From IMG/VR virus record IMGVR_UViG_3300025677_000006, positions 1 to 64,000 of that record: DNA of 64,000 nucleotides; one strand, 5' to 3'. Origin of the DNA: a virus. Shown one piece after another: positions 2,383 through 47,750 of this stretch (position 1 is the first letter of the stretch; each line of letters opens with the position of its first letter). The notes under the pieces are model-generated. The model made no database searches. It was not told where the DNA came from and was given only the letters and a program-made list of their open reading frames with translations. A program made the translations under genes and the position numbers.

Positions 2383-3024
2383 TTATATTTTTTGTTTAAT
2401 TTTTTGAAAAGAAAGTGTTAATTCCTTTAAATCTTTTTCTATTAAATTACCAATTTCATTTTTACTTACTTCTGAAATTAAATCAGTTTCAATAATTGCA
2501 AATAATTTATGTTCAAACGAAAATAAACATAATCCACCATACCTATAGTCAATATTTTCAATGGGTATCCATTCTGAATTACCAATCTTGAAATGTGTGA
2601 AATTTTCAGAATGAAAAACAATTGAATTATCATTAAATTCATCCACTATATATTCAATCAAACAGTTTTTTTCAACAAAATAAAAATCGTTTTGGGGTTT
2701 GATTTCTGGATTAATTACATCCTTTTCATATATTGATGATGGTGCTGTGGGTATATTATTAAATTTAAAATGAAAAGTGTCTTTATTATCAAATAGTATA
2801 TTGTTTCTTATTCTTCCTATATACCTTGTAATTAAACATTTTTCAACATACGTGACGTATTTAAATTCTTCATCAATAGTAATTCTCCATTTAATGGCTA
2901 TTATTTTCTTTGGTTTTATGAGTTTTATTATAAAATTCTTAAAACAAAGGTAATAGTAATAACCATATCCACTTCTTAAATATGGTAATATTTTAACATT
3001 TATAAAATTTTTTATTCTTTTCAT
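2383..3024 (-). CDS. Hypothetical protein
   Basis: 213-aa ORF with no recognisable motifs. Confidence 0.4.
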   Translation of the reverse strand: MKRIKNFINVKILPYLRSGYGYYYYLCFKNFIIKLIKPKKIIAIKWRITIDEEFKYVTYVEKCLITRYIGRIRNNILFDNKDTFHFKFNNIPTAPSSIYEKDVINPEIKPQNDFYFVEKNCLIEYIVDEFNDNSIVFHSENFTHFKIGNSEWIPIENIDYRYGGLCLFSFEHKLFAIIETDLISEVSKNEIGNLIEKDLKELTLSFQKIKQKI

Positions 3025-3138
3025 TTTAATATTTTTTTATTTCAATTTCATCATCAATATCAAACATTAAATTAATATTATTAAGTAATATTTTTTATTT
3101 CAAATTTATTACTGCCAATAATAGGTATGTTAAATCCA

Positions 3139-3672
3139 TTAACTATTAATAGATTTAATATGTCTTATTGATATTAAATTTTCATCATCATTCAAATCTA
3201 AAAGTTTAAATATTTCAATGAAATCTTCTTGATTTAATGGTAATTCATATTTTTTTTCAAGTATAATTTCACACCTATTTTTCAATAATATTTTTTCGTT
3301 AAATTCATTCTTTGCAACTATTTCTTTTATATATTCATAAACATAACCAATTTTTCTTAATTTAACTTCTATGCCTTTCAACAAAGAATTTATTTGAGAA
3401 ATTTTATCGTTCTTTTCGTTGAAGTCTAAAATATTATAATCTATTCCACGTTCCATTTTATTGTATTTAAATGCGTTTAATTCAGCACACAACTTTAGTT
3501 TTTTGTTTATTAATTTTTTTCTTTTAATTTCTAACTCTTTAAAACTTAAATTTGATTCCATCAATCTACTAAGTTGTGGATTATTACTATGAATTTTTTT
3601 CTTTGATAGAAAACCAATAAATAATTTCCAAATATGTTGAAAATATAAAAATATTCTTATTATTATTTTCAT
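3139..3672 (-). CDS. Hypothetical protein (coiled-coil rich)
   Basis: 177-aa ORF, K/E-rich. Confidence 0.4.
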   Translation of the reverse strand: MKIIIRIFLYFQHIWKLFIGFLSKKKIHSNNPQLSRLMESNLSFKELEIKRKKLINKKLKLCAELNAFKYNKMERGIDYNILDFNEKNDKISQINSLLKGIEVKLRKIGYVYEYIKEIVAKNEFNEKILLKNRCEIILEKKYELPLNQEDFIEIFKLLDLNDDENLISIRHIKSINS

Positions 3673-3895
3673 AAAAATTTTTAAATTTTTGTAAATATTT
3701 ACAATGTTCTAATTTTATATTATTTTGTTTAAAATGAAACGTTAATAATTATATTTTTTAATAAATACTTTTCATTCTATAAAAAATCATAAATTTTTAT
3801 AATTCTACTAATTATAATTATATAAAGACTAAATTGAATAATCCAAACTCACCACTATTGATAGTAGTGGTGAGTTTGAACTTAATGCTAAACAT

Positions 3896-4411
3896 TTACA
3901 GTTTTTTCATTGTATAAATTGAATTAATAAAACTCATACTAGGTTTAGTTTTAGTTAATTCAAATTTCAGTATTTGTTCTTCTTTGTTGTATTCCAATAC
4001 TTGAAATAATACACGAATTTCAAGACTAAGATGGTCAGCAAAAATAATTTGATTTTTTTCAATATCTATAAAATAATAATTTTGACTACCCCAATTACCA
4101 CCACACATATCATGAAATAAACCATAGCCCCAAGGTACACCATTATCATCCGTCCAAGGATAGTCATTATTAAATTCAATTTCTAAAAGTATTGCACCTT
4201 TATCATTAAGCCACATAAGGAATTTAACATCATCACATTCCGTATATGTATTACCATCATATTCCCATTTAATTGTAGTCCAGTAACCAATTAGTTCTTC
4301 AAAACTAATAATGGGAATTGGTTTTGGTGGTTCGGGTTCAACGATTTCTTCTTTTTTACAACTGGTTGCTACAACTATTGCAATCATCATAAAATAAATT
4401 AGTTTTTTCAT
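3896..4411 (-). CDS. Putative secreted lipoprotein (paralog of 271..771)
   Basis: Signal peptide MKKLIYFMMIAIVVATSC followed by KKEEIVEPEPP. Conserved EELIGYW motif. A 13-bp inverted repeat (3844-3877) lies just downstream. Confidence 0.6.
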   Translation of the reverse strand: MKKLIYFMMIAIVVATSCKKEEIVEPEPPKPIPIISFEELIGYWTTIKWEYDGNTYTECDDVKFLMWLNDKGAILLEIEFNNDYPWTDDNGVPWGYGLFHDMCGGNWGSQNYYFIDIEKNQIIFADHLSLEIRVLFQVLEYNKEEQILKFELTKTKPSMSFINSIYTMKKL

Positions 4412-4520
4412 GGCTTTAAATATTTTTTTGTTAGTTTATTTAGTGATACGAAAATAGTAAAAAAATGTTACAAAATATTATATTATTTTAATAACTATTT
4501 ATATAAACAGAAAGTGTTTT

Positions 4521-6158
4521 ATGGATAAACAGGTAAAAATATTATTGGGTGATAAAAAAAATATAGATTCTACAAATACTGATTTGCATGATAATATATC
4601 ATTAACGAATGAAATATCTGAAATTGTTGAATATGATGTTCATAAAACTATTAGTTCTAGTGAACAATATATAAAAGAAAGAGAAAATAGTGATAATTAT
4701 AGATTTTATGGTAAATTTGAATGGATTTCGCTATTAAATAACCTCAAATTTGGTTATAATGAATTAAAGGATTTTTTTAAACCAAGTGAAAATAATTCTA
4801 AAAATATTTTAAATTCATTTGATTTTTATTTAGTTAAACCAGAATTAAATTTAGATGAAGTAGAAGAACAGCCAAAAATATTAATTGATGAAAATTTTGA
4901 TGATTGGGTAATATCAGAACCAACGGATTATCCAAGAGGATGGGATGTTATTGTTAAGGGAGATTCTTATATGTCACAAACATTAGCAAATCAAGCAGAA
5001 TTAATAGTACATCCTAGTGGTATGTTACAAAATGGTACGATTCAAATGACAAAAAACATAATAGAATCCTATGGTACTTTGGTTTTTAAAACTAAAACAA
5101 CTGTATATGGTAATGTTGAAAATGATAGTTTTAGGGTTTTATTAAAATTTGATGATGATAATTATAAAGATTTTAATGTTTCTCTTACAGAAGATGGTGA
5201 AAAAACATATACTTGTGATATTGACAATGAAAATCCTATACGTAAAATAGTTATTATAGTAAAAGGTAATTCCCTAAAAGTTTATTTAGACTATATAAAA
5301 ATTGAATTATACAATGATTCTCAAAATATTAAAAGAAAATTTAAAGTATTAGCAACGCCTAACGATTTTACTATTCATAATGCTGGTTTTTCAAAAAATG
5401 TATATAACGAACAAATTTATTATTGGGATATTGATAAAACAATTAAACTTTCTGATTTTGCAAAAGATGATGAATACCCAATAACTGAATTATATTTATA
5501 TGCTAAATATATAGAATCAAATAATGGTAATAATGATTCAGAATTGTTAAAATTTTGCACTTGGATGTATGATGAAGAAGATGATGAATATGAAATGAAA
5601 ATTTTAAACAGTAAATTATTATCAATTGGTGATTATGTTACTAATAATGAAAATGAATATATTTCTGATATTGTTAAATATGATAAAAAAAATTATAATC
5701 AAGAATTATTGTTAGAACAAAAATTCAATATATATACTTTTCATTATAATGAAGATAATTTAAAAATAAGATTAGTTTGGAAATATAATCCATTTATACC
5801 GATAAGATTAAGATATTTAAGCAGTGATGTTTATAGTATTAGTTCTAATGATAGTATATATGAAAATATTGAACAAATACCAAAACATGCAATTGATATT
5901 TTGAATAATAATACATATATTTGGAGAGAAATTTTACCAGAAGGTTATTTTGAACCATTAACGAATATTGGTGTAGACCATCCGTTTTTAAATGATAATC
6001 ATTATATTTTTACACCAACAATATTTTCAGTTACACCCGATTTAAATGATATTACAACAAAAAATATATTTGATGAACTTTGGTATACAAAAAACGGTGA
6101 AATTACTTCAATTAAACCAAAAAATAATTTAGATGATATTGGAAAACCATGCTTATAA
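4521..6158 (+). CDS. Hypothetical protein, paralog family B (copy 2, with ~130-aa insertion)
   Basis: 545 aa. Aligns with 852..2189 over N-terminal, central and C-terminal blocks. Has an extra segment of about 130 aa near residues 120-260. Confidence 0.6.
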   Translation: MDKQVKILLGDKKNIDSTNTDLHDNISLTNEISEIVEYDVHKTISSSEQYIKERENSDNYRFYGKFEWISLLNNLKFGYNELKDFFKPSENNSKNILNSFDFYLVKPELNLDEVEEQPKILIDENFDDWVISEPTDYPRGWDVIVKGDSYMSQTLANQAELIVHPSGMLQNGTIQMTKNIIESYGTLVFKTKTTVYGNVENDSFRVLLKFDDDNYKDFNVSLTEDGEKTYTCDIDNENPIRKIVIIVKGNSLKVYLDYIKIELYNDSQNIKRKFKVLATPNDFTIHNAGFSKNVYNEQIYYWDIDKTIKLSDFAKDDEYPITELYLYAKYIESNNGNNDSELLKFCTWMYDEEDDEYEMKILNSKLLSIGDYVTNNENEYISDIVKYDKKNYNQELLLEQKFNIYTFHYNEDNLKIRLVWKYNPFIPIRLRYLSSDVYSISSNDSIYENIEQIPKHAIDILNNNTYIWREILPEGYFEPLTNIGVDHPFLNDNHYIFTPTIFSVTPDLNDITTKNIFDELWYTKNGEITSIKPKNNLDDIGKPCL

Positions 6159-7733: not shown

Positions 7734-7873
7734 TATTAGTTTTTTTTATAAATACTTATTTTTTTATTAATAATGGTTATATGTTTATTGGATTTATATA
7801 ATATTAATGTAAATTTTTTTGAAATTTTGTTTTTTATAAAATTAAAAATATCTTTGTATAAAAAAAATAAAAC

Positions 7874-18676: not shown

Positions 18677-20134
18677 TTAATTTTTCCATAAATAACCATT
18701 TACTCTTTTTTCATTTTTACACCATCTTGATATTGTGGATTGATTAACATTTTCAAAAACACTCGCCTTTTTTGTTGATTCAAATTCAATAATTTCATTA
18801 GTTTTTAAATTAACTTTAAATACCTTTTTGCAAATTATTTCTTTTTGTTTTTCAGACAATCCAATTTGTTTTTTTGTTTTACTAATTTTTTGTTTAGTTT
18901 CTTCTGTATGGTTTTTACCTAACCAATATTTAGAAGAATTTTTACTTAAAATTAATTTATCTTGCTTTGTTTTTTTTCTACCGTATTTTTTTGCATCATT
19001 ACTACCTGCTTTTGAAATTCTTTTATTAATCCATTCTTTAGATTGTTTAATACCTAAATGAGAAATAGACATTTTATCTAAAGTTTCTTTTGTTGGTATT
19101 ATATTTTTACCACCACCTTCAATATTATAACCAAATTCTTTTTGGTTTGATTTATAATCACTAATATATTTAATTTCTTTATTGTTTAGTTCTTGAATTG
19201 TTTTTGCCGTATCAATTATTGTAAATTCAAAATTATCCCAACCATACTTATTGAATGCATTATTAATATAATCATTACCCAAACCATTTTTATATTCTAA
19301 TATTTTTTCATTTATTGAACGAATTGTTTGTCCAATATATAATTTGTTGTTTATTTTGTTTTTTATTTTATAAATAACGCCAATAATTTCATCATTTCTT
19401 TTAGGATATGGTAATATTAAATGATTTATAGATGTTTTATGTTTTTTATTATTTCTTGGTGTGTCTATAAAATAAAAATATCTATGTTTTCTATATTGTG
19501 GTAAAAATATTGCATTGGGATAGTGTTTTAAAATAACATTTTTTTTCATCGTACCCAATTTATTTCTAACCCATCTACTATATCTTAATTTACCATCAAT
19601 TAATACTGAAAATCTTTTTGTTTCTTTATTATTGGAATAATTACCAGACATAACACCAACATATAACCAATTTAATGATTGATAAATTGTTCCGATTTCA
19701 CCTGCTGCTGGGTCAACAGTTGCTGTTATTATTCTATATTTTGTATTATTTTTTAACCATTTACAAACCCTAGAAATAAAAAAAGATGCTGTATTTTTTG
19801 GTGTCCACCATAAACAAACACCCCTGCTTAATAATAAAATTTTATTTGTAAATCCATATTTATCCCAAACACCAGTATTTTCTGTATAATCATTACTAAA
19901 AACTAAAACACCACCTAGTTTTTGACCATTTTCTGTATTAAAATATATACCAAAACAATATTTAACAATATATGGCATTGTTTTTAACCATTCATATTCT
20001 ATTATAATTTTACTTGCAGTGTTTTTATCAATTAATTTAATTTCTGTATTATCTAAAGAAATGTTTTTATAATTAAAATCTAATATTTCTTCTTTTGATT
20101 TTTTTATTCTAATTTTATGTTGGTGTGCTTCCAT
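18677..20134 (-). CDS. GIY-YIG homing endonuclease-like protein fused to an N-terminal ~240-aa domain of unknown function, possibly a GNAT/Mom-like acyltransferase fold
   Basis: The C-terminal half has GIY-YIG (IIGVIYKIKNKINNKLYIGQT). It also has NUMOD3-like repeats (GKNHTEETKQKIS and similar) and a C-terminal HTH-like tail. The N-terminal half (..SRGVCLWW..ASFFISRVCKWL..ATVDPAAGEIGTIYQSLNWLYVG) has no Met before the GIY motif, so this is a single fused ORF. Confidence 0.65.
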   Translation of the reverse strand: MEAHQHKIRIKKSKEEILDFNYKNISLDNTEIKLIDKNTASKIIIEYEWLKTMPYIVKYCFGIYFNTENGQKLGGVLVFSNDYTENTGVWDKYGFTNKILLLSRGVCLWWTPKNTASFFISRVCKWLKNNTKYRIITATVDPAAGEIGTIYQSLNWLYVGVMSGNYSNNKETKRFSVLIDGKLRYSRWVRNKLGTMKKNVILKHYPNAIFLPQYRKHRYFYFIDTPRNNKKHKTSINHLILPYPKRNDEIIGVIYKIKNKINNKLYIGQTIRSINEKILEYKNGLGNDYINNAFNKYGWDNFEFTIIDTAKTIQELNNKEIKYISDYKSNQKEFGYNIEGGGKNIIPTKETLDKMSISHLGIKQSKEWINKRISKAGSNDAKKYGRKKTKQDKLILSKNSSKYWLGKNHTEETKQKISKTKKQIGLSEKQKEIICKKVFKVNLKTNEIIEFESTKKASVFENVNQSTISRWCKNEKRVNGYLWKN

Positions 20135-20222: not shown

Positions 20223-21905
20223 CTAGGATAAATCACCAACACCAAATGTTGTTAATCCATCACATAAGATTTTACCATAGTAACGGTTTAGAACCATTTT
20301 CTTAGCATAACGTGTTAAAATACCACGAATTGGTGTAAAATCAAATGGATTATACATTACAGGTGTTAATTGCATAGGTATATATGGTGCATAAATATAG
20401 CCGGTTTCCAATATGCTAGTTCCTTTATGTCCAATAAGAACAGTATTAGGTGCTGAATATGGGTCACGGTAAACAACATAACGTCCACCTATTGTACCAA
20501 TTTTTTCAATACCCATATTATACTTATCTTGTTCAGGTGAAGCATTTGAAACGTGGAAATATTCTAAGTCATCAAAAACAGCAGAAACTTCAGGAGATAC
20601 AACTATCCATGATGCACCACCACGTAATGTTGACTTATTAATTTGTGCTGAAATTTGGTTAATTTTAGTAATTAACGTTTGATTCCAGTCTTTTTGTACA
20701 CCATAATAAGTATTAGTTCCTTTTCTTAATCCGTTATAATCCCAACGAGCAGTCCATGCAGCACCACGTCTTAAGTCACGTAATATTTCACGGTCAATTT
20801 CAGCAGCCATTTGTTCTGATAACAATGCAGTTAATTCTGCTTCAGCATCAATATTATGGAATGCAGAAACGTCTTGTGCTAATTCAGGTGTCCACATTGC
20901 TCTCATTTTACGAGTTTCAACACTTACAGTAACATAATCAAGAACGAATGTTACTTCTGCCATTCTTGAATCTTGTTCAAGGTCGCTATATGTTCTATAT
21001 GTTGCAGTATAAGTAGTTCCAGTTGGAATGGTTAATGCATGATAACCATCTTTACCAGGATATTGAACATCAAGTAAAACAACAATTTTACCATTTTTAT
21101 CCACAATACCCTGTCCATATTTTTGAACTTTTACGTTAAATGGTATTGGATTTCCACTTGCAATATTTTCACTTGTATAACCACTTGGTGCTGTAAAAGT
21201 TTTATTTGCTGTTACTTTTAATCCAGCAAGGAATGATTCGGTATCCATTGGTGCGCCAGCAGGACCTACCAATTTACCTGCATTATCAGTAGTAAATCCT
21301 GTGATTTCAAGAGTAACGAATTTATCTCCTGCTGTATAACCTTTAGCAGTTAAACCAGTAATTGATTTACTATCAATACTACCTTTTGATAAATCGAATA
21401 ATGAAGTACCTTCATCATTATATTCAGTTGCATAGAATGCATCGTATAATGAACGAGTTTCAAAATTAGTTGAACTTGTTGATGTTTTTTCAGCAGCATT
21501 TCCATATGCACCATCAGGTGATGTATGAATATTACCAAGTGTTGTTGTATGTGTACTATCTTGTACACGTGTACTAGCCTTTGGATTGATAAAATATAAT
21601 CTACCTAAAGGTAAGTTAAGTGCTTGTACTGAAACAATATCGTTTGCTAATAATTTTGCAAACACCCTACGAATAACAGGGAATGCAACTGTTTCAAATT
21701 GACCGCTTGATGTAGAATCAGAAGATTCTTTAAGCATATGAGATAATTGGTTTTCGAATAATTGAGCGCAATTTTCTTTAATATTGCCATCTAATCCTTC
21801 AAGTAATCCAATTTTTTCCCAACGGTTTGTCGTAATTTCTCTTTGTTCACGAAGTTGTTTAATACCAATGTTACCAACTTCGCCACTTTCCATTAAAAAT
21901 CCCAT
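20223..21905 (-). CDS. Major capsid protein, T4 gp23 family
   Basis: VIRRVFAKLLANDIVSVQALNLPLGRLYF matches T4 gp23 (MVRRAIPNLIAFDICGVQPMNSPTGQVFAL). The C-terminus YIYAPYIPMQLTPVMYNPFDFTPIRGILTRYAK matches gp23 (IYYAPYVALTPLRGSDPKNFQPVMGFKTRYG). The N-terminus has a NCAQLFENQ block as in gp23. Confidence 0.9.
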   Translation of the reverse strand: MGFLMESGEVGNIGIKQLREQREITTNRWEKIGLLEGLDGNIKENCAQLFENQLSHMLKESSDSTSSGQFETVAFPVIRRVFAKLLANDIVSVQALNLPLGRLYFINPKASTRVQDSTHTTTLGNIHTSPDGAYGNAAEKTSTSSTNFETRSLYDAFYATEYNDEGTSLFDLSKGSIDSKSITGLTAKGYTAGDKFVTLEITGFTTDNAGKLVGPAGAPMDTESFLAGLKVTANKTFTAPSGYTSENIASGNPIPFNVKVQKYGQGIVDKNGKIVVLLDVQYPGKDGYHALTIPTGTTYTATYRTYSDLEQDSRMAEVTFVLDYVTVSVETRKMRAMWTPELAQDVSAFHNIDAEAELTALLSEQMAAEIDREILRDLRRGAAWTARWDYNGLRKGTNTYYGVQKDWNQTLITKINQISAQINKSTLRGGASWIVVSPEVSAVFDDLEYFHVSNASPEQDKYNMGIEKIGTIGGRYVVYRDPYSAPNTVLIGHKGTSILETGYIYAPYIPMQLTPVMYNPFDFTPIRGILTRYAKKMVLNRYYGKILCDGLTTFGVGDLS

Positions 21906-30287: not shown

Positions 30288-31109
30288 TTATTTTTCTTGA
30301 AGTTTACTTATATCAATTTCTCTATCTGTAGTGAAATTAGACTCTTTAAACGCAGTTTCAAACCAAAATTTTCGTTCATCCATTGGCATATTTTTTAAAT
30401 ATCCATCAAATAAACTACCTTCACGATTAATTAAATGTCTATATCCGATTTTTGGTATTGCAAATATTTTAGATGCATTATTTAATGCTCTAAGAATAAA
30501 TTCATACATAAAAGTTAGTTTTATGTTTCTTTTATATCTACCCAAATTAATAAATTCAGATTTTTTTATTGCAGCACCACTTAATTTAAAATCAGTATAT
30601 TGTTTTATTGAATTTAAATTCAAATATCCCAATTCACCATTTTCACCAACAAATTGTTGTGACCAAACCATTTCATTAGTTAATTTAATACCTTTATTTT
30701 CATTTGTTACTTCAATCATCATTATTAAAAAAATATCAATGTTGGGATATGCTTTTACATATTCATTAATATTTTTTAAATACGTTAACCCCAATTCGTC
30801 ATCAAATTCAAGAACAGTAAAATAATCAGTATTAACACTATCAACAGCAAGATTTACCTGAGATTGATAATCAGTATTTCCATTATTTTTTATTAGTTTA
30901 AAATTATAATTAAAATATTTTTCTTTAATAAAATTATTAATTTCATTTTCTATTGTTGATGAATAAACAATTAAAACGTCTGGTTTTTCAACTTCTTGTT
31001 GATTTATAATTGATTCAATCGCTTTATTTAAATATGTTGAAATATTATCATTAAATTCATGTATTGGAATTATTATTGATGTACTATTCATTTTCTTTAG
31101 TATTTTCAT
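30288..31109 (-). CDS. Glycosyltransferase, GT-A (family 2-like)
   Basis: SIIIPIHEF..AIESIINQ......VLIVYSST, then TVLEFDDEL (a DxD-like motif). Confidence 0.5.
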   Translation of the reverse strand: MKILKKMNSTSIIIPIHEFNDNISTYLNKAIESIINQQEVEKPDVLIVYSSTIENEINNFIKEKYFNYNFKLIKNNGNTDYQSQVNLAVDSVNTDYFTVLEFDDELGLTYLKNINEYVKAYPNIDIFLIMMIEVTNENKGIKLTNEMVWSQQFVGENGELGYLNLNSIKQYTDFKLSGAAIKKSEFINLGRYKRNIKLTFMYEFILRALNNASKIFAIPKIGYRHLINREGSLFDGYLKNMPMDERKFWFETAFKESNFTTDREIDISKLQEK

Positions 31110-33390: not shown

Positions 33391-34320
33391 ATGTCTGAAG
33401 AAAAAAATTTTTCTCAAAAAAAGGGTATTTCTGACCTTCTAAAAAAATATAGAAGTCAAAAAGATAATGTTGAAAATGAAAATACAAATCAAATCAACAT
33501 TCCAAAACCACAAGAAAATACACCTAATTTACAACAATTTAATCATGAAGAATTTGAAAAAGCCATGTCTAAAGAAACCGACCCAGATTTAATTACAACT
33601 TATGAAATTGTTAAATTACCATCTAAAGGTTTATTTTATAAAAATGGTCTTTCTGAAATAAATGTCGAATATATGACATCAAAAGATGAAGATTTATTAA
33701 CTACTTCATCATTAATTGAAAGTGGTGTTGTTTTAGACTTACTATTGAAAAGAAAAATAAAAACACCAAATGTTAATCCAGAAGATTTATTACCAGGTGA
33801 CCGTAATGCAATTTTACTGTTTTTACGTATAACAAGTTATGGTTCTGATTATACTGTTCAAGTAACTGACCCAAGAACAGGTGTTCCATTTAAAACAACA
33901 GTTGATTTAACAAAACTTAAATATAAAAAAATTGAAGAAAAACCAAACGATAATGGTTTGTTTAGTGTTGATTTACCAATGCGTAAAAAAAATGTACTTT
34001 TTAAACTATTAACTGTTGGTGAAGATACAAGAATATATAAAACTGCTGAATCTTTAAAAGAAGCAAAAAATGAAGAATTTAGTCAGTATTCTACCATGAG
34101 ATTAGTTGCAAGTATTGTATCAATAGATGGTAATACTAATAAAACATATATTAGTAAGTTTGTTGATGCAATGCCAGCATTGGATGCATACGCAATTCGT
34201 AAAAAAATGTTGGATGTTAGTCCTGATGTTGATATGGATTATGTCTTTACTGCTAAAGATGGATATACTTTCAATGCTAATTTAACAATTGGTTTAGATT
34301 TTTTTTTCCCAAGCATCTAG
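33391..34320 (+). CDS. Hypothetical protein upstream of tape-measure-like gene. Candidate tail assembly chaperone with -1 frameshift extension.
   Basis: 309-aa ORF ending just after a T9 run (34299-34307). The -1 frame stays open for a further 67 codons (PKHLAEDYKKMVNEEIY...KKRPRF) to a stop at 34509-34511. Confidence 0.5.
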   Translation: MSEEKNFSQKKGISDLLKKYRSQKDNVENENTNQINIPKPQENTPNLQQFNHEEFEKAMSKETDPDLITTYEIVKLPSKGLFYKNGLSEINVEYMTSKDEDLLTTSSLIESGVVLDLLLKRKIKTPNVNPEDLLPGDRNAILLFLRITSYGSDYTVQVTDPRTGVPFKTTVDLTKLKYKKIEEKPNDNGLFSVDLPMRKKNVLFKLLTVGEDTRIYKTAESLKEAKNEEFSQYSTMRLVASIVSIDGNTNKTYISKFVDAMPALDAYAIRKKMLDVSPDVDMDYVFTAKDGYTFNANLTIGLDFFFPSI

Positions 34321-34491
34321 CGGAAGATTATAAAAAAATGGTAAATGAAGAAATTTATGTTCTTACTAAACACGCTAAATTTCAAAGCGAATATATTGAA
34401 AATATACCCGTTTATCGAAGAAGATATTTTTTATATCTGTTTGAAAAAGAAATGGAAGAATTAAAAAAACTACAAGAAAAAGAAATCAAAA

Positions 34492-34530
34492 AAAGACCAA
34501 GATTTTAAAATTTTGGTCTTTTTTTATTTA
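34492..34530 (+). terminator. Rho-independent terminator
   Basis: AAAGACCAA-GATTTTAAAATT-TTGGTCTTT followed by TTTTATTT. Confidence 0.6.
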
Positions 34531-34596
34531 TAATAATCGTAATTTAAAATTTTATTAAAATTTACCAATAACTATTTATAGTAAAATATTATCACT

Positions 34597-37197
34597 ATGA
34601 GCAAAATGTCACCTGAAGAAGTTAGAAAAACATTTGAAGAATATCAAAAATTAAATAAAGAACTTCAAAAATCAAGAAAATCTTTAATTAATCTTGGTGA
34701 TTATGAACGTGCTAGAGCAATTACTGTTGAAATTATTGCAAATAATGAAAAAATTGTAAATCAATTAAAAAATAATACTAAAGGTTTAACAGACGAACAA
34801 TTAAAACAATACAATAAATTAATTGATATTCAAAAAGAATTAAATAACGAACTTGATAATGAATATAAAAGAAGAAAACATATTATAAGTTCATTAAAAC
34901 ATAGTTTTGATTTATTAGTAAGTGGTTATAAATATTTACAACAACAGGATAAAATCATAAAAAATACCATTCTTAATCTAGGAATGAGTGGGAACAAAGC
35001 AGAATTAATGCGAGGTTCTTTTGAAAGAAGTGCAATGTTTGTTGCTAGATTGGGTGGTAATCTTGAAGTTATTCAAACCATGATGACTGGATTTGCCGAT
35101 GAAACAGGTAGGTCACGTGCATTAACATCAGATATGGTTAAGGATATTACTGTTATTGGTAAAGGTACTGGTCTTGGAATTGAACAGGCAACTAAACTTT
35201 CAGCACAATTTGAAGCAATTGGTATTAATACAAAAGGTGCTTTAGATTATGTTCAGGGTGTTGTTGATACTTCTGAAAGAATGGGTGTTAATACCACAAA
35301 AGTATTAAAAAATATTACTGATAATTTTAAAAAACTACAAACCTTCCATTTTCAACAGGGTGTTAGAGGTTTTAGAGAAATGGCAGAATATGCTGAAAAA
35401 TTTAAAGTTGATATTTCCGATGCATTAAATTCTGCTGAAATTGCAAGAACACTTGAAGGGGCTATTGGTATGGTAGCAAATTTACAGGTAATGGGTGGTG
35501 AATTTGCTAAATTGGATATGTTTGAAACACTATATTTTGCACGTAATGACCCTGCTAAACTTCAAGCAAAAATTGGGGAAATGACAAAGGGTATTGTTAC
35601 ACTTCGTAAAAATAGTGAAGGTACTTTTGAAAAATTTATTAGTCCTGCTGACCGTGATAGGCTTGCTGCTGCTGGTAAAGCATTGGGTATTACTACGGAT
35701 AAAATGACAGAAATGGCATTAAGAGCATTTGATATCGGAAAAATGTCACAGGAATTATCTGGTATGGGTTTAACAAATGAACAAAAACAACTAATTGAAG
35801 GTGCTGCATTTTTTAATCAACAAACTGGTAAATTTCAAGTTCAACTTGGTGAAGATATGAAAAATATCAGTGAATTAACAATACAACAGGCTAAATCTTT
35901 TGCACAAGAACAAAAACTATTAAAAGACCGTGCAAAAGAAGCAATGACTTTTGATGAAACATTTAAAGCAACAATAGAAATGTTAAAAGCAGGATTATTA
36001 CCATTATTAAATAATATAAATAAAGCATTGTTATGGATAAGTAAGTATTCAGATAAATTATTTGAAGGAAAGGGTATTGTTATTGCTGCTACCACATTAT
36101 TTGCTGGTGCTAAATTATTTTTTCTTTCTTCAAAACTTCTTAATAGAGCATTTGATAATTACATATCATATAATAAATTAAGTTTTAGAAATTTAGCAGC
36201 AACTAATTCTGGTGGTCTTTCTAGTCTTTTTAGTAAAAGTGTTGGTATTGGTGATTCATTAACACCAACAACAGGAAAAGGAAGTAGTGGTTTAGCAGAT
36301 ATGAGAAGGGGTATTGGTGCTGGTGCTGAAGCAGAGGGTAGGGGTATTGGTGCTGGTGCTGAAGCAAAGGGTAGGGGTATTGGTGCTGGTGCTGAAGCAA
36401 AGGGTATTGGAATGAAAAGACTTGGTACTGGTGCAGGTATTGGTGCTGCTGCTTTAGGAATTGGTGGCGGTGTTGCACTTGCTGCTGTTGGTATTAGTAA
36501 ACTTGCCGATTCTATGAGCAAATTGGATGAAAAACAATTATCTGTTTTAAAAGGAATTGCCATGACATTAGCCATTTCGTTTCCTGCTGCTGCTCTTGGT
36601 ATTGCTATTGCAGGTGCTGCTGGTGCACTTGCTGCTCCAGGATTATATGCACTTAGTGTTGCTGCTTTAGGAATAGGTGCTGCTGTTGGTATTGCTGCTG
36701 TTGGAATAGGAATTATGGCAAAAGGAATTGGTGAAATGATTGAAAAAAGTAAAGGTGCTGGTGATGCAATGCTTAGTGTTGGACTTGGTGTTAAGGCATT
36801 ATCATTAGCAATGATGGGTTTTACAGCAGGTGCTTTAGGTTTGGGAGTATTTGCATTAACAATGAAAACAATAGCAAAACATGCCGATGCTGTTGAAAAG
36901 GTAGGTAATGCTTTTGGTAATATAAAAGCAGTAATGTCTGGAACAAAAGAAGATTTTGAAGCCGTTGAAAGTGCAGTTAAATTAATTTCAAGTGTGAATA
37001 CAAATAAAGGTAGTGTATTTGCTGAACTTGCAGCATTATTAAAAACACCTTTAAAAGTAGAATTTGAAAAAAATACAATACCTATTCAAACTGATGTAAC
37101 GCTTGAAGTTGATGGTGAAAAATTAATGAATAAATCATTTACGAATAGAATTGCTGTTCAAAAATCAAATGATGCTAAACTTGGTAAGGTAAATTAA
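34597..37197 (+). CDS. Tail tape-measure-like protein
   Basis: 866 aa. N-terminal coiled coil, a central Gly/Ala-rich hydrophobic block with several transmembrane-like segments, and a tandem GIGAGAEAKGR repeat. It lies downstream of the candidate frameshift gene. Confidence 0.5.
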   Translation: MSKMSPEEVRKTFEEYQKLNKELQKSRKSLINLGDYERARAITVEIIANNEKIVNQLKNNTKGLTDEQLKQYNKLIDIQKELNNELDNEYKRRKHIISSLKHSFDLLVSGYKYLQQQDKIIKNTILNLGMSGNKAELMRGSFERSAMFVARLGGNLEVIQTMMTGFADETGRSRALTSDMVKDITVIGKGTGLGIEQATKLSAQFEAIGINTKGALDYVQGVVDTSERMGVNTTKVLKNITDNFKKLQTFHFQQGVRGFREMAEYAEKFKVDISDALNSAEIARTLEGAIGMVANLQVMGGEFAKLDMFETLYFARNDPAKLQAKIGEMTKGIVTLRKNSEGTFEKFISPADRDRLAAAGKALGITTDKMTEMALRAFDIGKMSQELSGMGLTNEQKQLIEGAAFFNQQTGKFQVQLGEDMKNISELTIQQAKSFAQEQKLLKDRAKEAMTFDETFKATIEMLKAGLLPLLNNINKALLWISKYSDKLFEGKGIVIAATTLFAGAKLFFLSSKLLNRAFDNYISYNKLSFRNLAATNSGGLSSLFSKSVGIGDSLTPTTGKGSSGLADMRRGIGAGAEAEGRGIGAGAEAKGRGIGAGAEAKGIGMKRLGTGAGIGAAALGIGGGVALAAVGISKLADSMSKLDEKQLSVLKGIAMTLAISFPAAALGIAIAGAAGALAAPGLYALSVAALGIGAAVGIAAVGIGIMAKGIGEMIEKSKGAGDAMLSVGLGVKALSLAMMGFTAGALGLGVFALTMKTIAKHADAVEKVGNAFGNIKAVMSGTKEDFEAVESAVKLISSVNTNKGSVFAELAALLKTPLKVEFEKNTIPIQTDVTLEVDGEKLMNKSFTNRIAVQKSNDAKLGKVN
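36311..36409 (+). repeat. Tandem 33-nt repeat x3 (GIGAGAEA[E/K]GR) inside tape-measure-like gene
   Basis: ggtattggtgctggtgctgaagca[g/a]agggtagg repeated three times. The antisense translation gives the spurious PA-rich and QHQ ORFs. Confidence 0.8.
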
Positions 37198-40913: not shown

Positions 40914-41234
40914 ATGCCAAAATTAGATTATAATAGATATGCCATATTAAAAAAGCCTGATGGTTCAATTGAACCCATGCCTTTTGTTGATTTACCTGTT
41001 AATACTAGTGATAAGTATATTTTTTGGAGTAGTGGTAGTGATAGGTTAGATAAATTATCACAAAAATATTATAATAATCCTTTTTACGATTTTTTAATAT
41101 TATATGCCAATAATGAATATACAAATGAATTTGATATTCCTGATAATGCATTGATTAGAATACCATTCCCATTAGAGAGGGCAATTTATGATTATGAATT
41201 AATTTTAAAAAATCATATGCAACAATTTATTTGA
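40914..41234 (+). CDS. Hypothetical protein
   Basis: 106-aa ORF. Confidence 0.4.
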   Translation: MPKLDYNRYAILKKPDGSIEPMPFVDLPVNTSDKYIFWSSGSDRLDKLSQKYYNNPFYDFLILYANNEYTNEFDIPDNALIRIPFPLERAIYDYELILKNHMQQFI

Positions 41235-41283: not shown

Positions 41284-43398
41284 ATGAAAAATAATATTGT
41301 TGTTGTTTTTTCATCCCATTTATCTGAAGAAGAAAATCAGAAATTTATTAAACATATTAACAATACCATTGGTAAAGTTAAACATGATGTAATTTGCTAT
41401 TCAAATTTTAATCAGTATAGTCTTACTGAAATTTATAATAAAGCGATTAAAGAACATTATAAAAAGGATTCTATATTTGTTGTTTGTCATAATGATATTA
41501 TTATAGGTACGAGAGATTGGGGTAAATTATTGCTTTTTAAATTTAATCAAACAAATTTTGATATTATTGGTGTTGCAGGTAGTACCTATTTACCTGAATC
41601 CTGTGTATGGTGGGAAGATAGAACAAAAATGGTTGGTATTGTTGACCATACGGATGGATATTCTATTTGGACAAGTGAATATTCTAAAGAAAAAAAGGGT
41701 GTGATTACACCAGTTGTTTTGGTTGATGGTCTTTTTATTTCTTTTAATCCCGATACGATTGTACATAGATTTGATGAAGAATTTAAAGGGTTTCATCTTT
41801 ATGATTTATCATTTTGTATTCCAAATTGGCTTGATGGTTGTAATATTGGTGTAACAACAGATATTAGAATATTACATAAATCAATTGGTGAAACAAATCA
41901 ACAATGGGATGAAAATAGAAAACAATTAGCGGAAAAATATTATGATGAATTACCAATAACAATATTACCAGAATATAATGATTTAATTGTTAATTTATTA
42001 ACAGAGCCAAAAGTAACAGTAATTATTCCAACAAAAAATAATTTAAAGTATATTAAAAATAATATTTATTCTTGGAATAATGTTGTTAATTATGATAATT
42101 ATGAAATAATTATTGCTGATACGGGTAGTGATGAAAGTGTAATTAAGGAATATGATTCATTTCTTTCAAATAAAATTAAATTAATAAAATATAATTATTA
42201 TAATTTTGCTAAAATAAATAATGATGTAGTAAAAAATCATACATCTAATGATACAGAATTAATACTATTTTGTAATGATGATATAAAATTATTAAATGAT
42301 AGTCTTAGTAGATGTATTGAAATTTATAATCAAAATAAAGATACTGTTGGTACTATTGGTATTAGATTACATTATGGGGATGGTAGTATTCAACATAATG
42401 GGATTTTAATGTATAAAGAAAATAATATTTTAAGACTTACACATAAAGATATTAGAAAAACTGAAAATTATTTTACTGGTATTAATTACGATTCATTGGG
42501 AAATACTGGTGGGTTTATGTTAATTAAAAAAGATTTATTTTTAAAATATGGTGGGTTTAATGAAAACTATATTGAATGTTTGGAAGATGTTGAATTAAAT
42601 ATTAAATGTAAATACGATGGATTAAAAAATATTACAGTTAGTGATGCTGTTGCAATTCATTATGAATCTATAAGTAGAAATAAAATTTTGGGTGGTAATG
42701 AAAGATTTATGGTTGATTATAATAGATTGATGAATTTTGTAAACGATTTTGAAAATAAAGAAAGAGAAATTAAAAGAAATAAAGAAAATAAAAATCCAAT
42801 TATTAATATTATAACAAGAACACACGATAGACCTAAACATTTTAAAATATGTAGAGATTCAATTTTAAATCAAACATATAAAAATATTAATCATATTGTT
42901 GGTAGTGATATTGATTGTGATTATTGTGATGATTATATTAAATTAGAATTACAAGAAGTTCAACCAAAACCAGATAATTTGGCATCATATCCTGCACCTT
43001 GGAATTTACACATAAATGTTTTACATAACTATGTAAAAGAAGGTTGGATTATGTATTTAGATGATGATGATATGTTTATTAATGAAAATTCTTTAAGTAT
43101 AATAGTGAATCATATTGAAAATGAAGATGAATTATTGCTTTGGAGAGTAAACATTAATGGAAGAATAGTTCCAGATGATAATGGTTTTGGAAAAATTATT
43201 GCAGGGAATATATCTGGTATTGGTTTTATGTTTCATTCGAAATATTTACCAATTGATTGGGTGTCTTGGAATTTTGGTGATTATAGGGCTATTAAACAAT
43301 TAGAAAATAAAAAATTAAAACAGAAATGGATTAACCAAGTGTTAACAAAAACACAAGGTGTTCCAAATTTAGGAAAAAAACCAAATGATTATGAATAG
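41284..43398 (+). CDS. Multi-domain glycosyltransferase (at least two or three GT-A-like modules)
   Basis: VTVIIPTKNNLKYIK......YEIIIADTGSDE (GT2 signature). A second block has INIITRTHDRPKHFKICRDSILNQTY. An N-terminal module starts IVVVFSSHLSEEE. Total 704 aa. Confidence 0.6.
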   Translation: MKNNIVVVFSSHLSEEENQKFIKHINNTIGKVKHDVICYSNFNQYSLTEIYNKAIKEHYKKDSIFVVCHNDIIIGTRDWGKLLLFKFNQTNFDIIGVAGSTYLPESCVWWEDRTKMVGIVDHTDGYSIWTSEYSKEKKGVITPVVLVDGLFISFNPDTIVHRFDEEFKGFHLYDLSFCIPNWLDGCNIGVTTDIRILHKSIGETNQQWDENRKQLAEKYYDELPITILPEYNDLIVNLLTEPKVTVIIPTKNNLKYIKNNIYSWNNVVNYDNYEIIIADTGSDESVIKEYDSFLSNKIKLIKYNYYNFAKINNDVVKNHTSNDTELILFCNDDIKLLNDSLSRCIEIYNQNKDTVGTIGIRLHYGDGSIQHNGILMYKENNILRLTHKDIRKTENYFTGINYDSLGNTGGFMLIKKDLFLKYGGFNENYIECLEDVELNIKCKYDGLKNITVSDAVAIHYESISRNKILGGNERFMVDYNRLMNFVNDFENKEREIKRNKENKNPIINIITRTHDRPKHFKICRDSILNQTYKNINHIVGSDIDCDYCDDYIKLELQEVQPKPDNLASYPAPWNLHINVLHNYVKEGWIMYLDDDDMFINENSLSIIVNHIENEDELLLWRVNINGRIVPDDNGFGKIIAGNISGIGFMFHSKYLPIDWVSWNFGDYRAIKQLENKKLKQKWINQVLTKTQGVPNLGKKPNDYE

Positions 43399-44104
43399 TA
43401 AAGTAGATATTTACATTGCATCATTATGGCGACAAGGTCATGCCGTTGTTGCAATTAATTCGCTAAGAAGTCAACCAGAATTTGGTACAGCAACAATTAC
43501 GTGTAATAATTGGACTGATGAGCAATGGGAATATATTAATAAAGAATTGGGCGATGATATGCGAATTAAATTATATAGGGGTAATAATGAAAAGGGTAGT
43601 AATGAAAAATTAAAATATATTGCTCATGGTAATAATTATTATATTGCGTTGGCTGATGATGATTTAATATATCCACACGATTATTTAGGTAAATTAATTA
43701 ATGGTTGTGAGAAATATAATGCACATGTTTCATTACATGGTGTTGTATTATTGAAAGGTATTATTAATAGTTATTATAGAGATAGAATTGTTTATAGGGC
43801 GTTAGGTACTGTTTTATTGGATCAAGAAGTCGATATTGTTAGTAATTGTGGTAGTTTATTTAAACGTAATTTTTATAATGATTTAGATAAATGGTATGAT
43901 TACTGTGGTAATGTATCAATGGATGATTTATATGTTAATTATTTTGCGAAAAAAAATGGGATAAAACGGTATGTTTTGTCACATGTTGAAGGGTATTTAA
44001 AACACAAAAAACAATATCCTGAAGATAATTATGTTTTTGATAAACACAAAAACGATGATAGTGTGCAAACTAATTTTATTAATAACGTATTTTTAAAGGT
44101 GTGA
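43385..44104 (+). CDS. Glycosyltransferase-like protein
   Basis: 239 aa with YIALADDDLIYP (a DxD-like motif). The ATGA overlap with the upstream gene suggests coupling. Confidence 0.4.
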   Translation: MIMNSKVDIYIASLWRQGHAVVAINSLRSQPEFGTATITCNNWTDEQWEYINKELGDDMRIKLYRGNNEKGSNEKLKYIAHGNNYYIALADDDLIYPHDYLGKLINGCEKYNAHVSLHGVVLLKGIINSYYRDRIVYRALGTVLLDQEVDIVSNCGSLFKRNFYNDLDKWYDYCGNVSMDDLYVNYFAKKNGIKRYVLSHVEGYLKHKKQYPEDNYVFDKHKNDDSVQTNFINNVFLKV

Positions 44105-46559: not shown

Positions 46560-47750
46560 GTGAAAACAATATATAGGACATATCGCTTTGAATTAAGACC
46601 GACACAAGACCAAAAAGTGTTGCTGGATAAACACTTCGGGTGTGTTAGGTTCGTGTACAATTACTTTCTGAATGAGCGTAAAGAACAGTATCAGGCAAAC
46701 AAGAAGTCTGACAACTATTATGTTCAAGCAAAAACTTTGACTGAATTAAAAAAGCAAGAGGAAACTGCTTGGCTTAAAGAAGTAAACAGCCAAACCCTGC
46801 AATTTGCTTTAAGGTCTTTGGATACTGCATTCCTTAACTTCTTTCGTGGCAATGCCAAGTTTCCAAGATTTAAGTCTAAGAAAAGAAGGAATAGTTTCAC
46901 CGTACCACAACACACAAAATTAGAAGGTAGTAAAATTCACGTACCTAAATTCAAAGAAGGGATTAAATGTATTGTTCACCGTGAAATAAGGGGCGATGTT
47001 GGCAAAATGACCTTTACTAAAACACCGACTGGAAGATACTATGTTTCAATTTTAACCGAAGAACAATATCAACCAAAAGAAAAAACTGGTGCTGTATGTG
47101 GTGTGGATTTAGGTTTGAAAGATTTTGCCATTACTTCTGACGGCATCAAATTCAAGAATAACAGATATACCAAGAAATATGAAAGAGATTTAGCGAAAGC
47201 ACAAAAACATCTTTCTCGTAAGCAAAAAGGTAGCAATTCGTTTGAAAGACAAAAACGAAAAGTTGCCAAAATACACGAGAAAATATCCAACACAAGACAA
47301 GATGTATTGCATAAGGTATCGCATCAACTTGTTTCTGATTATGACATAATTGCTTTGGAAGACCTTAATGTAAAGGGAATGATGAGCAATAGAAAATTAT
47401 CAAAACACATTGCAGATGCAAGTTGGGGTACATTTGTGAGATTCTTGGAGTACAAAGCAGATTGGAACGATAAACAAGTTGTTAAAATCAATCGCTTTTA
47501 CCCCTCAAGCAAAACTTGTAATGTGTGTGGATGGATAAATCAAGATTTAAATCTTTCGGTTCGTGAATGGACTTGCAAAAATGGACATAAATTAGACCGT
47601 GATTTAAATGCAGCAAAGGTCATTCTGAAAGAAGGATTGAAAATAATATCGGGTGGGACGCTCGATAACACGGATGGAGATGGTGTAAGAAGTAGTAATA
47701 CTCAACTATCTGCGAAGTCCGAAGCCCATTTGTCTTTAGCAAATGGGTAG
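46560..47750 (+). CDS. tnpB: IS605 OrfB / TnpB RNA-guided nuclease family protein
   Basis: 396 aa. N-terminal YRFELRPT..Q, a RuvC-like core, and a C-terminal zinc finger CNVCGW...CKNGHKLDRDLNAA. Confidence 0.85.
   Translation: MKTIYRTYRFELRPTQDQKVLLDKHFGCVRFVYNYFLNERKEQYQANKKSDNYYVQAKTLTELKKQEETAWLKEVNSQTLQFALRSLDTAFLNFFRGNAKFPRFKSKKRRNSFTVPQHTKLEGSKIHVPKFKEGIKCIVHREIRGDVGKMTFTKTPTGRYYVSILTEEQYQPKEKTGAVCGVDLGLKDFAITSDGIKFKNNRYTKKYERDLAKAQKHLSRKQKGSNSFERQKRKVAKIHEKISNTRQDVLHKVSHQLVSDYDIIALEDLNVKGMMSNRKLSKHIADASWGTFVRFLEYKADWNDKQVVKINRFYPSSKTCNVCGWINQDLNLSVREWTCKNGHKLDRDLNAAKVILKEGLKIISGGTLDNTDGDGVRSSNTQLSAKSEAHLSLANG

Follow-up and report, generated by a model that had tools for sequence, protein, structure and literature searches.

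A conserved two-frame arrangement in a T4 gp26-family gene points to a programmed −1 shift in a phage tail assembly chaperone

In the window analysed here, a stretch of 64,000 nucleotides of viral DNA (positions 1 to 64,000 of the IMG/VR record IMGVR_UViG_3300025677_000006), the plus-strand gene at 33,391–34,320 encodes 309 aa; the protein belongs to the T4 gp26 'baseplate hub' family, and its predicted fold resembles that of tail assembly chaperones. From the comparison of related sequences, we consider it likely that this gp26-family chaperone gene yields two proteins with a common N-terminus by means of a −1 shift within a run of nine T residues near its 3′ end. Normal decoding would give the 309-aa short form ending in ...DFFFPSI. 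Meanwhile, a fraction of the expression events would move to the −1 frame within the T9 run and give a 372-aa long form (...DFFFPKHLAEDYKKMV...RPRF) with a 66-residue helical C-terminal extension. The likeliest route would be the tandem slippage of two tRNA-Phe on the heptamer T TTT TTC. The initial annotation of this DNA had proposed a programmed −1 frameshift of the G/GT type at this place, and the proposal has since gained support from the invariant slip run, the coding signature of the −1 frame, the loss of a start codon in several relatives, the frames used by distant relatives, the homologue P0261 and the chaperone fold of the upstream product.

Read directly, the 3′ terminus is GAT TTT TTT TTC CCA AGC ATC TAG, and the 309-aa ORF ending in a T9 run with the heptamer T TTT TTC is indeed as it had been described. 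The T9 run occupies positions 34,299–34,307 of the plus strand (34,299–34,308 together with the C that follows it), and the heptamer at 34,302–34,308 lies in the X XXY YYZ phase of a canonical −1 site, which makes this segment the proposed recoding site. The zero-frame stop codon TAG (34,318–34,320, plus strand) stands two codons past the Pro codon and overlaps the −1-frame Leu-Ala codons CTA GCG. The −1 frame is open from position 34,281, right behind a TAA at 34,278–34,280, and continues without a break to the next stop. The extension encoded in this frame (34,308–34,508, plus strand) comprises 66 codons (PKHLAEDYKKMVNEEIYVLTKHAKFQSEYIENIPVYRRRYFLYLFEKEMEELKKLQEKEIKKRPRF; residues P307–F372 of the long form) followed by a TAA at 34,506–34,508. 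The uninterrupted extension noted earlier is thus open to its stop as claimed, but it was given one codon too many (67) and a stop three nucleotides too far downstream (34,509–34,511).

The T9 run by itself is nothing unusual in this window, which has a GC content of 24.8% and contains 65 runs of at least eight A or T residues, ten of them with a length of at least nine. Open alternative frames at gene ends are also frequent here because many genes overlap, and for the same reason a chance count of such frames is uninformative. Judging from the sequences compared, it is conservation that takes the slip site beyond chance. No stimulatory RNA structure was detected 3′ of the slip site (fold z = −0.3); in the consensus fold past the site the U run itself pairs with a downstream A run and nothing else is formed, and no Rfam frameshift element was found. 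The G/GT site of lambda is not known to need such a structure either.

The comparison set consisted of 81 related viral loci from metagenomes with a protein identity of 55–67% and a GC content of 25–41%. The initial annotation had suggested looking for the same arrangement in relatives, and both the T run in the required phase and the −1 peptide recur in all 81 loci. The motif GA[TC]TTTTTTTTCCC is present in 79 of them, and two more carry GATTTTTTTTCCCCC with the in-phase heptamer T TTT TTT. The run consists of nine T residues in 71 loci and of eight in ten loci. The slip run is constrained at the nucleotide level: its three Phe codons show no synonymous change at all, whereas TTC makes up 17% of the Phe codons elsewhere in the same genes, and the codons next to the run vary freely. 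The zero-frame stop follows two codons past the Pro codon in all main-motif loci but one (78 of 79) and also in L069 and L070, and it comes one codon later in L081; among the main-motif loci it is TAG in 73 cases, TAA in five and TGA in one. The zero-frame product of L069 and L070 becomes DFFSPGT while the shifted product is still DFFFP. As several loci have a −1-frame TGA directly before the T run, entry into this frame must fall within the run. Both frames are under purifying selection. The same terminus, DFFFPxx, was found in each of the best 120 of 1226 matching protein homologues, and a search across 1.84 billion representatives gave 2329 matches; of the 150 listed, almost all share this end point.

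The extension is 62–75 aa long among the relatives and conserved in sequence, with a codon-position entropy of 0.50, 0.19 and 1.05. Between the zero-frame stop and the ATG at 34,338 lie six −1-frame codons, A E D Y K K (34,320–34,337, plus strand), which carry a coding signature. The entropy by −1 codon position is 0.26, 0.23 and 0.99 in this segment, and the six most variable of its 18 columns are exactly the third positions of the −1 frame. By this signature, the −1 frame is coding upstream of the ATG even though no start codon precedes those six codons.

The ATG itself (34,338–34,340, plus strand) corresponds to Met317 of the long product and is a possible secondary start of a free 56-aa peptide. 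It is used by gene callers, which predict ORFs of 56–59 aa from it in the window and the relatives. The codon is present in 55 of the 61 aligned relatives (approximately 90% of the clade) and is replaced in the six others by TTA (L042 and L053), ATT (L087), ATA (L085), CTT (L019) or TTG (L040). Its context is A-rich and resembles that of other starts of this phage. As Shine-Dalgarno-like motifs are found for only two of the window's 43 genes, the GGNGA sequence ahead of the ATG is best read as Gly-Glu coding rather than as a ribosome binding site.

Distant representatives of the family were sampled one by one. The homologous extension is found in the +1 frame in Flavobacterium phage immuto, Microcystis phage Mel-JY01, Listeria phage LIS04, Bacillus phage HSE3 and Streptococcus phage GXN1 as well as in LR756508 and L096, and in the −1 frame in Xanthomonas phage Xoo-sp13, LR756511 and L095. 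Where distant relatives have no upstream start codon, the frames join at a conserved FF motif, and in immuto, Mel-JY01 and LIS04 no start codon stands ahead of the conserved part of the extension. Several of these junctions are not homopolymers: they read TTT CTT TGG in immuto, TTC TTT CGT in HSE3 and GXN1, and AAC TTT CTA in LR756508. In the homologue P0261, known as a protein sequence from a single 2.5-kb contig, the extension is fused to the upstream part in frame. Two loci were left out as support, namely L098, which has tandem gp26-like paralogues, and L099, in which the extension has its own ATGs. In the annotated phage records examined, the gene is called a "baseplate hub subunit"; the extension is either given as a small hypothetical protein or left out, and neither the shift nor the long product is marked.

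The 309-aa protein matched PF12322 (T4_baseplate) over residues 70–288, scoring 40.3 bits (cut-off 24.5; E = 3.6e-10), and all 22 clade members examined matched this family. It also matched the 'baseplate hub' profile phrog_150 (E = 2.6e-10). Adding the extension stretched this match to positions 15–281 of the 282 in the profile and raised the score from 41.2 to 46.0 bits. No Pfam family besides PF12322 gave a sequence match for the protein or its clade, none of the Phage_TAC_* families of Pfam appeared at E ≤ 1 among the 22 clade members, and PDB sequence searches with the fusion and its profile returned no matches. A Foldseek search of BFVD with the model of the 309-aa protein gave 60 matches at E ≤ 1e-3. 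Wherever a function was named for a match, it was baseplate hub or baseplate protein; examples are the SP-15 protein (E = 5e-18) and entries called 'Baseplate hub assembly protein, bacteriophage T4-like'. The three best structural matches of the gp26-like model in the PDB were all three solved phage tail assembly chaperones. The upstream product, as modelled, has the tail-assembly-chaperone (TAC) fold. The model of the fused product, built from a mixed alignment, was poor (pLDDT 62); the extension was predicted to be helical, and a Foldseek search of the PDB with this model gave no match.

Downstream of the two-frame region, a terminator scan identified a terminator-like hairpin with a T tract (34,488–34,525, plus strand), and the stop codon of the extension sits in its loop, in agreement with the earlier placement of this stop within a terminator hairpin. 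The stems were counted across relatives by script. The hairpin is found at this position in most of the 62 relatives, with compensatory changes in the stem and 12 different arm pairs, and it is followed by TTTTGTATTTATA in most of them. In the window, two TATTTATA motifs (34,525–34,532 and 34,573–34,580, together spanning 34,525–34,580 of the plus strand) lie between the hairpin and the next gene. As this octamer occurs 15–40 nt upstream of many starts in the window, we regard its copies as candidate phage promoters.

The next gene (34,597–37,197, plus strand) lies outside the recoding unit and encodes an 866-aa probable tape measure protein. Its N-terminal half is coiled-coil-like and its C-terminal segments are hydrophobic and rich in Gly and Ala, and the gene at this position encodes 817–866 aa in 49 relatives. 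No tape measure family match was obtained for the protein in Pfam, PHROGs, NCBIfam, a tblastn search against phages or a PDB profile search, with 16 family members scanned; the one similarity obtained, a weak one between profiles, was found by hhalign with immuto's annotated tape measure protein (E = 1.4e-3, probability 17%). Annotated tape measure genes hold the next-gene position in immuto, LIS04 and HSE3. The order of sheath, tube, gp26-like gene, extension and tape measure gene was observed in immuto, LIS04, HSE3 and Mel-JY01. In the window itself, sheath and tube genes are not present upstream of 33,391–34,320, where the genes lie on the minus strand.

The lambda proteins gpG and gpGT reportedly arise by a −1 frameshift, and a frameshift in the tail assembly genes is said to be conserved among long-tailed double-stranded DNA phages. 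The gene described here resembles lambda G/GT in its two predicted products with a shared N-terminus, in a slip site located a few codons before the zero-frame stop, in the TAC fold of the upstream domain and, if the 866-aa gene is indeed the tape measure gene, in its position directly upstream of it. As in lambda and other long-tailed phages, the arrangement is kept while the sequence diverges, and the shift is −1 or +1 depending on the lineage. It differs in the length of the protein, which at 309 aa is approximately doubled, in a short extension (62–75 aa) that is predicted to be helical, in the use of a T run instead of G GGA AAG as the slip site, and in matching PF12322 as its only Pfam family. 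A conserved hairpin and a promoter-like motif also precede the probable tape measure gene here; we know of no such elements between the chaperone and tape measure genes of lambda or P2. In the contractile-tailed phage P2, the E/E+E′ frameshift is reported to lie in the FETUD tail operon. In P2, the sheath and tube genes are followed by the chaperone gene, whose −1 shift occurs on a T-rich heptamer, and then by the tape measure gene, and distant gp26-like relatives have this order as well; the P2 chaperone, however, belongs to another protein family, and the window lacks adjacent sheath and tube genes.

By analogy with lambda gpG/gpGT and P2 E/E+E′, the chaperone domain shared by both forms would coat the probable tape measure protein of the downstream gene, while the extension, carried by a minority of the molecules, would recruit another tail component, for example the tube or the hub. 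The slip rate would then set the ratio of the short form to the long form. The two-frame architecture, the constraints on the slip run and on the −1 frame and the chaperone-like fold are observed, whereas the molecular step of the shift, the efficiency of this step and the partners bound are inferred.

The same 372-aa protein could be produced by the RNA polymerase. If the polymerase slipped on T9 (A9 in the template) and added one U, the mRNA would read GAU UUU UUU UUU CCC AAG..., and the predicted product would be identical to that of the ribosomal shift. As far as the compared sequences tell, the evidence fits ribosomal frameshifting and transcriptional slippage on T9 alike. Runs of such length support productive transcriptional slippage in bacteria, as in Shigella mxiE (T9) and Thermus dnaX (A9), where, as here, a homopolymer lies at the junction of overlapping frames and one added mRNA nucleotide fuses them. 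The eight or nine T residues at the frame junction of every close relative and the lack of a detected stimulator structure for the ribosome are both in favour of slippage by the polymerase. However, unlike in mxiE and dnaX, the run is here also a perfect −1 heptamer and always keeps the X XXY YYZ phase, an argument that is weak because the DFFFP residues also force the phase. Distant relatives (immuto, HSE3, GXN1 and LR756508) reach the same extension without a homopolymer, which makes ribosomal shifting the more general mechanism in the family. We regard transcriptional slippage as possible rather than probable at this site, and the two mechanisms may also act together.

It could be supposed, on the other hand, that there is no recoding and that the T9 run just encodes Phe-Phe-Phe. 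The ATG at 34,338 would then start an independent gene, perhaps coupled to termination at the TAG at 34,318–34,320. Such a gene was proposed earlier with a length of 57 aa; it has 56, and as the sole route to the extension it is disfavoured by the coding signature that reaches six codons upstream of the ATG and by the replacement of this ATG with the non-start codons TTA, ATT and CTT in L042, L053, L087 and L019. The prediction by gene callers, the wide occurrence of the ATG in an A-rich context, the overlapping ATGs of the extension in L099 and the separate hypothetical protein listed for annotated phages all speak for it. They have to be set against the invariant Phe codons, the relatives without a start before the conserved part of the extension (immuto, Mel-JY01 and LIS04), the in-frame fusion in P0261 and the completion of the phrog_150 profile by the extension. 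We consider an independent gene improbable, although a separately initiated 56-aa peptide may be made in addition to the long form. A homopolymer miscall hiding a true T10, which would fuse both frames, is conceivable since some sequencing platforms are error-prone on such runs, and a pseudogene or a phase-variable tract would likewise make the T9 run an artefact or a defect. The out-of-frame arrangement was, however, found in 81 independent metagenomic loci and in all 120 listed close homologues (of 1226 matches), the latter drawn from several sources; a length variant that joins the frames occurred in neither set, and purifying selection acts on both frames. An error or defect is accordingly hardly credible, and the initial suggestion of a phase-variable or error-prone tract can be discarded.

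T4 gene 26 encodes a baseplate hub assembly chaperone that is the founding member of the PF12322 family. T4 gp26 is a homologue of the 309-aa protein in sequence and structure and has an equivalent Phe-Phe C-terminus (...GLKEFFELL* in T4 and ...GLDFFFPSI* in the window). It differs in that there is no extension: gene 25 comes directly next, and gene 26 is not beside the tape measure gene 29. T4 makes a second product instead, 26′, which is annotated as a CDS of its own and covers the 3′ portion of gene 26 without a change of frame. On balance, we lean towards the wider reading that the PF12322 family, which numbers thousands of proteins from contractile-tailed and jumbo phages, is a family of G/GT-type chaperones, in which recoding at the Phe-Phe motif is ancient, has switched between −1 and +1 by lineage and has gone unannotated, and from which T4 is a derived case that lost the extension. 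If this is true, the loss would explain why no G/GT-like frameshift is, to our knowledge, known in T4.

Two-frame recoding of a tail chaperone, familiar from lambda G/GT, is here proposed for the T4 gp26 family, for which we found no record of it. No account of frameshifting in any gene of this family turned up in the literature searched, which is weak evidence given the thin coverage of subscription journals. The predicted 372-aa product has been missed in every phage record examined. The arrangement is present in several cultivated phages as well as in 81 or more loci from metagenomes, and the gp26-like family comprises 2329 representative clusters at 50% identity. The fold and the gene architecture link T4 gp26, which so far has had a vague role in hub assembly, with the well-understood G/GT chaperones, and they provide a concrete, testable model for tail length and hub assembly in jumbo myophages. 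With its natural range of −1 and +1 shifts at a single homologous position, the family also lends itself to work on the evolution of frameshift sites.

The ORF at positions 33391-34320 (+) encodes a protein of 309 aa, which matched the PF12322 family (T4_baseplate, the family of T4 gp26) with an E-value of 3.6e-10, over the curated cut-off, as well as phrog_150 'baseplate hub'. The Foldseek search against BFVD retrieved gp26-like 'baseplate hub (assembly)' proteins of many myophages. The three best PDB matches of the protein model are all described as phage tail assembly chaperones (PMC9603447), and gp26 is listed as a hub assembly chaperone in a review of the T4 tail (PMC3004832). Based on the family match, the fold matches and these descriptions, we assign the product to the gp26 family, with a predicted chaperone-like fold. 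The window is clearly phage DNA, with genes for the major head protein, helicases, a DnaB-like helicase and homing endonucleases, and since related contigs reach 320-365 kb, it probably originates from a jumbo phage. The major head protein (20223-21905, -) matched phrog_138 (E 8e-65) at residues 248-536 only, and its N-terminal region of about 250 aa lies outside this match. In the 485-aa ORF at 18677-20134 (-), a Mom-like DNA modification domain occupies residues 21-261 and a GIY-YIG/HNH-type homing-endonuclease domain occupies residues 245-484.

The 309-aa ORF ends with GAT TTT TTT TTC CCA AGC ATC TAG and thus contains a T9 run (34299-34307, +) and the in-phase X XXY YYZ heptamer T TTT TTC (34302-34308). 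The -1 frame is open from 34281, just after the TAA at 34278-34280, through to the TAA at 34506-34508, and a -1 shift would give a product of 372 aa (M1-F306 followed by P307-F372). The initial annotation set this stop at 34509-34511, one codon too far, and assigned 57 aa to the alternative gene starting at ATG 34338, the computed length of which is 56 aa; it rightly placed the stop inside a terminator hairpin, since a terminator-like hairpin (34488-34525, +), followed by a T tract, has the stop in its loop. The window has a GC content of 24.8% and 65 A or T runs of at least 8 nt, and because its genes overlap, alternative frames are often open at the ends of genes. Neither the run nor the open frame alone is remarkable here, and the case depends on the comparison with relatives.

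A search of 5.8 billion proteins yielded 1226 homologues of the 309-aa protein. The best 120 of them (60-74% identity, about 300-310 aa) all end with DFFFPxx, and they covered the fused query to only 80-83%. The DNA of 81 related viral contigs (25-41% GC) was used for the nucleotide comparison, in which GA[TC] TTT TTT TTC CC was present in 79 of the 81 loci. The other two (L069 and L070; 3895-3918) carry GAT TTT TTT TCC CCC, with an in-phase T TTT TTT one codon earlier; their zero-frame product changes to DFFSPGT, and the shifted product still contains DFFFP and reads DFFFPRNLAGEY. As DFFFP is kept in the -1 product only, the shifted product and the run appear to be under selection. The zero-frame stop is two codons past the Pro in 78 of the 79 main-motif loci and also in L069 and L070, and the -1 peptide (62-75 aa) is conserved as P..LAGEYKKMV.EEIYILTKHAKFQA.YIE.[IL]P[IV]YRRRHFL.LL.KE.EE. 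The three Phe codons of the run are invariant; elsewhere in the same genes Phe is encoded by TTT 627 times and by TTC 131 times, and the codons directly upstream of the run vary freely among the relatives. The T9 tract had also been regarded as a possible phase-variable or error-prone homopolymer. Since the frame break is conserved and an in-frame run length was found in none of the 81 loci, sequencing error, a pseudogene and phase variation are excluded as its cause.

The initial annotation proposed a programmed -1 frameshift and, alternatively, an independent gene starting at ATG 34338. About 90% of the clade retain this ATG, the A-rich context of which resembles other starts in the window, so a free 56-aa peptide may also be made. 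However, the coding signature already covers the six codons (A-G-E-Y-K-K in the -1 frame) that separate the zero-frame stop from the ATG, whose positional entropies (0.26, 0.23 and 0.99) follow the same pattern as those of the extension 3' of the ATG (0.50, 0.19 and 1.05). The third positions are exactly the six most variable among these 18 columns, the probability of which is 1 in 18,564 for that phase. The ATG itself is replaced in six related loci, by TTA (L042, L053), ATT (L087), ATA (L085), CTT (L019) or TTG (L040). In several loci, TGA shuts the -1 frame directly before the T run, so translation of the six codons before the ATG can begin only by frame entry within the run. As Shine-Dalgarno-like motifs precede only 2 of the 43 genes (long ORFs) in the window, where A/T-rich sequence lies upstream of the starts, the conserved GGNGA before the ATG is Gly-Glu coding sequence and not a ribosome binding site; this also suggests a host not reliant on Shine-Dalgarno initiation. 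With the extension added, the phrog_150 match covered positions 15-281 instead of 15-233 of the 282 in the profile and scored 46.0 instead of 41.2 bits. HMMER, run against 1.84 billion representatives, identified 2329 members of the family; of the 150 listed, nearly all stop at query positions 306-309, and one, P0261, a homologue known from its protein sequence alone, continues in frame through the extension (...ITPEFLGVTPDYRKNLDEEIFLVWYY...). These six lines of observation favour recoding over a separate small gene. The 56-aa ORF (P0121, identical to window positions 34338-34508) is an NCBI hypothetical protein of 'MAG TPA ... [archaeon]'; its source contig resembles a phage that was placed in the bin of an archaeon or given an archaeal label.

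The hairpin over the stop of the extension is present in most relatives (L001-L088) with compensatory stem changes: the 37 loci having a perfect 7-bp stem contain 12 different arm pairs, including GACCGAG/CTCGGTC, GACCAAG/CTTGGTC, GATCGAG/CTCGATC, GGCCGAG/CTCGGCC and TAGTCCA/TGGACTA. Its 5' arm codes for the C-terminal R-P-R of the extension, and a conserved TTTTGTATTTATA follows it (together 34488-34532). The conserved hairpin and TTTTGTATTTATA therefore suggest that the chaperone gene, extension included, forms a transcription unit of its own. Over the whole window, the octamer TATTTATA shows no enrichment (42 found, 34 +/- 5 expected). It lies in the correct orientation 15-40 nt upstream of many gene starts (for example, at 4496, 33348, 33370, 34525, 34573, 41245 and 54961 on the + strand and at 7747, 13019, 23539, 24291 and 29302 on the - strand), and thus may be a phage-specific promoter element.

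In many distant relatives, a homologous extension is present in another frame. It is in the +1 frame in Flavobacterium phage immuto (junction TTT CTT TGG CCT), Microcystis phage Mel-JY01 (TTT TTT TGG CCT), Listeria phage LIS04 (GAG TTT TTT AGT), Bacillus phage HSE3 and Streptococcus phage GXN1 (both TTC TTT CGT CCC), Huge phage LR756508 (AAC TTT CTA) and the viral locus L096 (AAT TTT TTT TGG), and in the -1 frame in Xanthomonas jumbo phage Xoo-sp13 (GCT TTT TTT ATT, with an in-phase T TTT TTT), LR756511 and L095 (T9). The frames meet at a conserved Phe-Phe motif wherever the junction is readable (all but LR756511, L098 and L099). No start codon is present where the conserved part of the extension begins in immuto, Mel-JY01 or LIS04. 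The base after UUU is C or U in the +1 lineages, so that tRNA-Phe could shift by one base downstream and pair again. The annotated records list a 'baseplate hub subunit', either with a hypothetical protein or with nothing after it, and none of them has a joined CDS. Two loci are ambiguous as cases of recoding: L098 has two tandem PF12322 genes (3001-3936 and 4214-5146) that are not followed by an obvious tape measure gene, and a stop in every frame separates the extension-like ORF between these paralogues from the first gene; in L099, the extension has its own ATGs.

No stimulatory RNA structure was found near the slip site (fold z-score -0.3), the only pairing in the consensus fold was between the U run and the A-rich Y-K-K codons downstream of it, and the Rfam search returned no relevant element. 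The U9CCC slip region (34298-34310) is complementary to GG..UAUAAAAAAAU (34322-34339, the Y-K-K-M codons), both sides being conserved. This pairing is unlikely to act as a classical stimulator, since it is weak (-4.3 kcal/mol), lacks covariation and involves the slip site. The 372-aa product would arise from tandem -1 slippage on U UUU UUC; RNA polymerase adding one U at the T9 tract would give the same protein, and the sequence alone does not separate the two routes. Some relatives reach the extension with no homopolymer, which argues for ribosomal shifting as the general mechanism in the gp26-like family.

Sheath, tube, gp26-like gene, extension and a long gene follow one another in immuto, LIS04, HSE3 and Mel-JY01, and the long gene is annotated as the tape measure in all of these but Mel-JY01; this order puts the gp26-like gene in the classic position of a chaperone. 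T4 gp26 ends at the point equivalent to the window protein (...GLKEFFELL*), but T4 has no extension and its gene 25 directly follows gene 26. The downstream 866-aa gene of the window matched no family; its composition is tape-measure-like, its counterparts in 49 relatives encode 817-866 aa, and a profile comparison matched it weakly to the tape measure of immuto (E 1.4e-3, probability 17%). The 106-aa ORF at 40914-41234 (+) weakly matched gp25-like baseplate wedge PHROGs (E 3e-3 and 5e-3), and the order of chaperone, 866-aa, 1082-aa and gp25-like genes fits a tail/baseplate module. Several glycosyltransferase genes flank this cluster or lie inside it (30288-31109, -; 41284-43398, +; 43385-44104, +), one encoding 704 aa with two GT2 domains. 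The 396-aa ORF at 46560-47750 (+) strongly matched the transposase family phrog_506 (E 2e-135) and appears to be a mobile element within the phage genome.

Conserved frameshifting in tail assembly chaperone genes is textbook knowledge, so the gp26-family case would be an addition to a known kind of system and not a new kind. In the literature, the coverage of which is incomplete, we found no description of a frameshift in any gp26-family gene or of gp26 as a G/GT-type chaperone. By analogy with lambda G/GT, the domain shared by both forms would act on the tape measure, and the extension would recruit a tube or hub component. From the lineages sampled, it is plausible that PF12322 as a whole corresponds to G/GT in T4-like and jumbo myophages, T4 having lost the extension.
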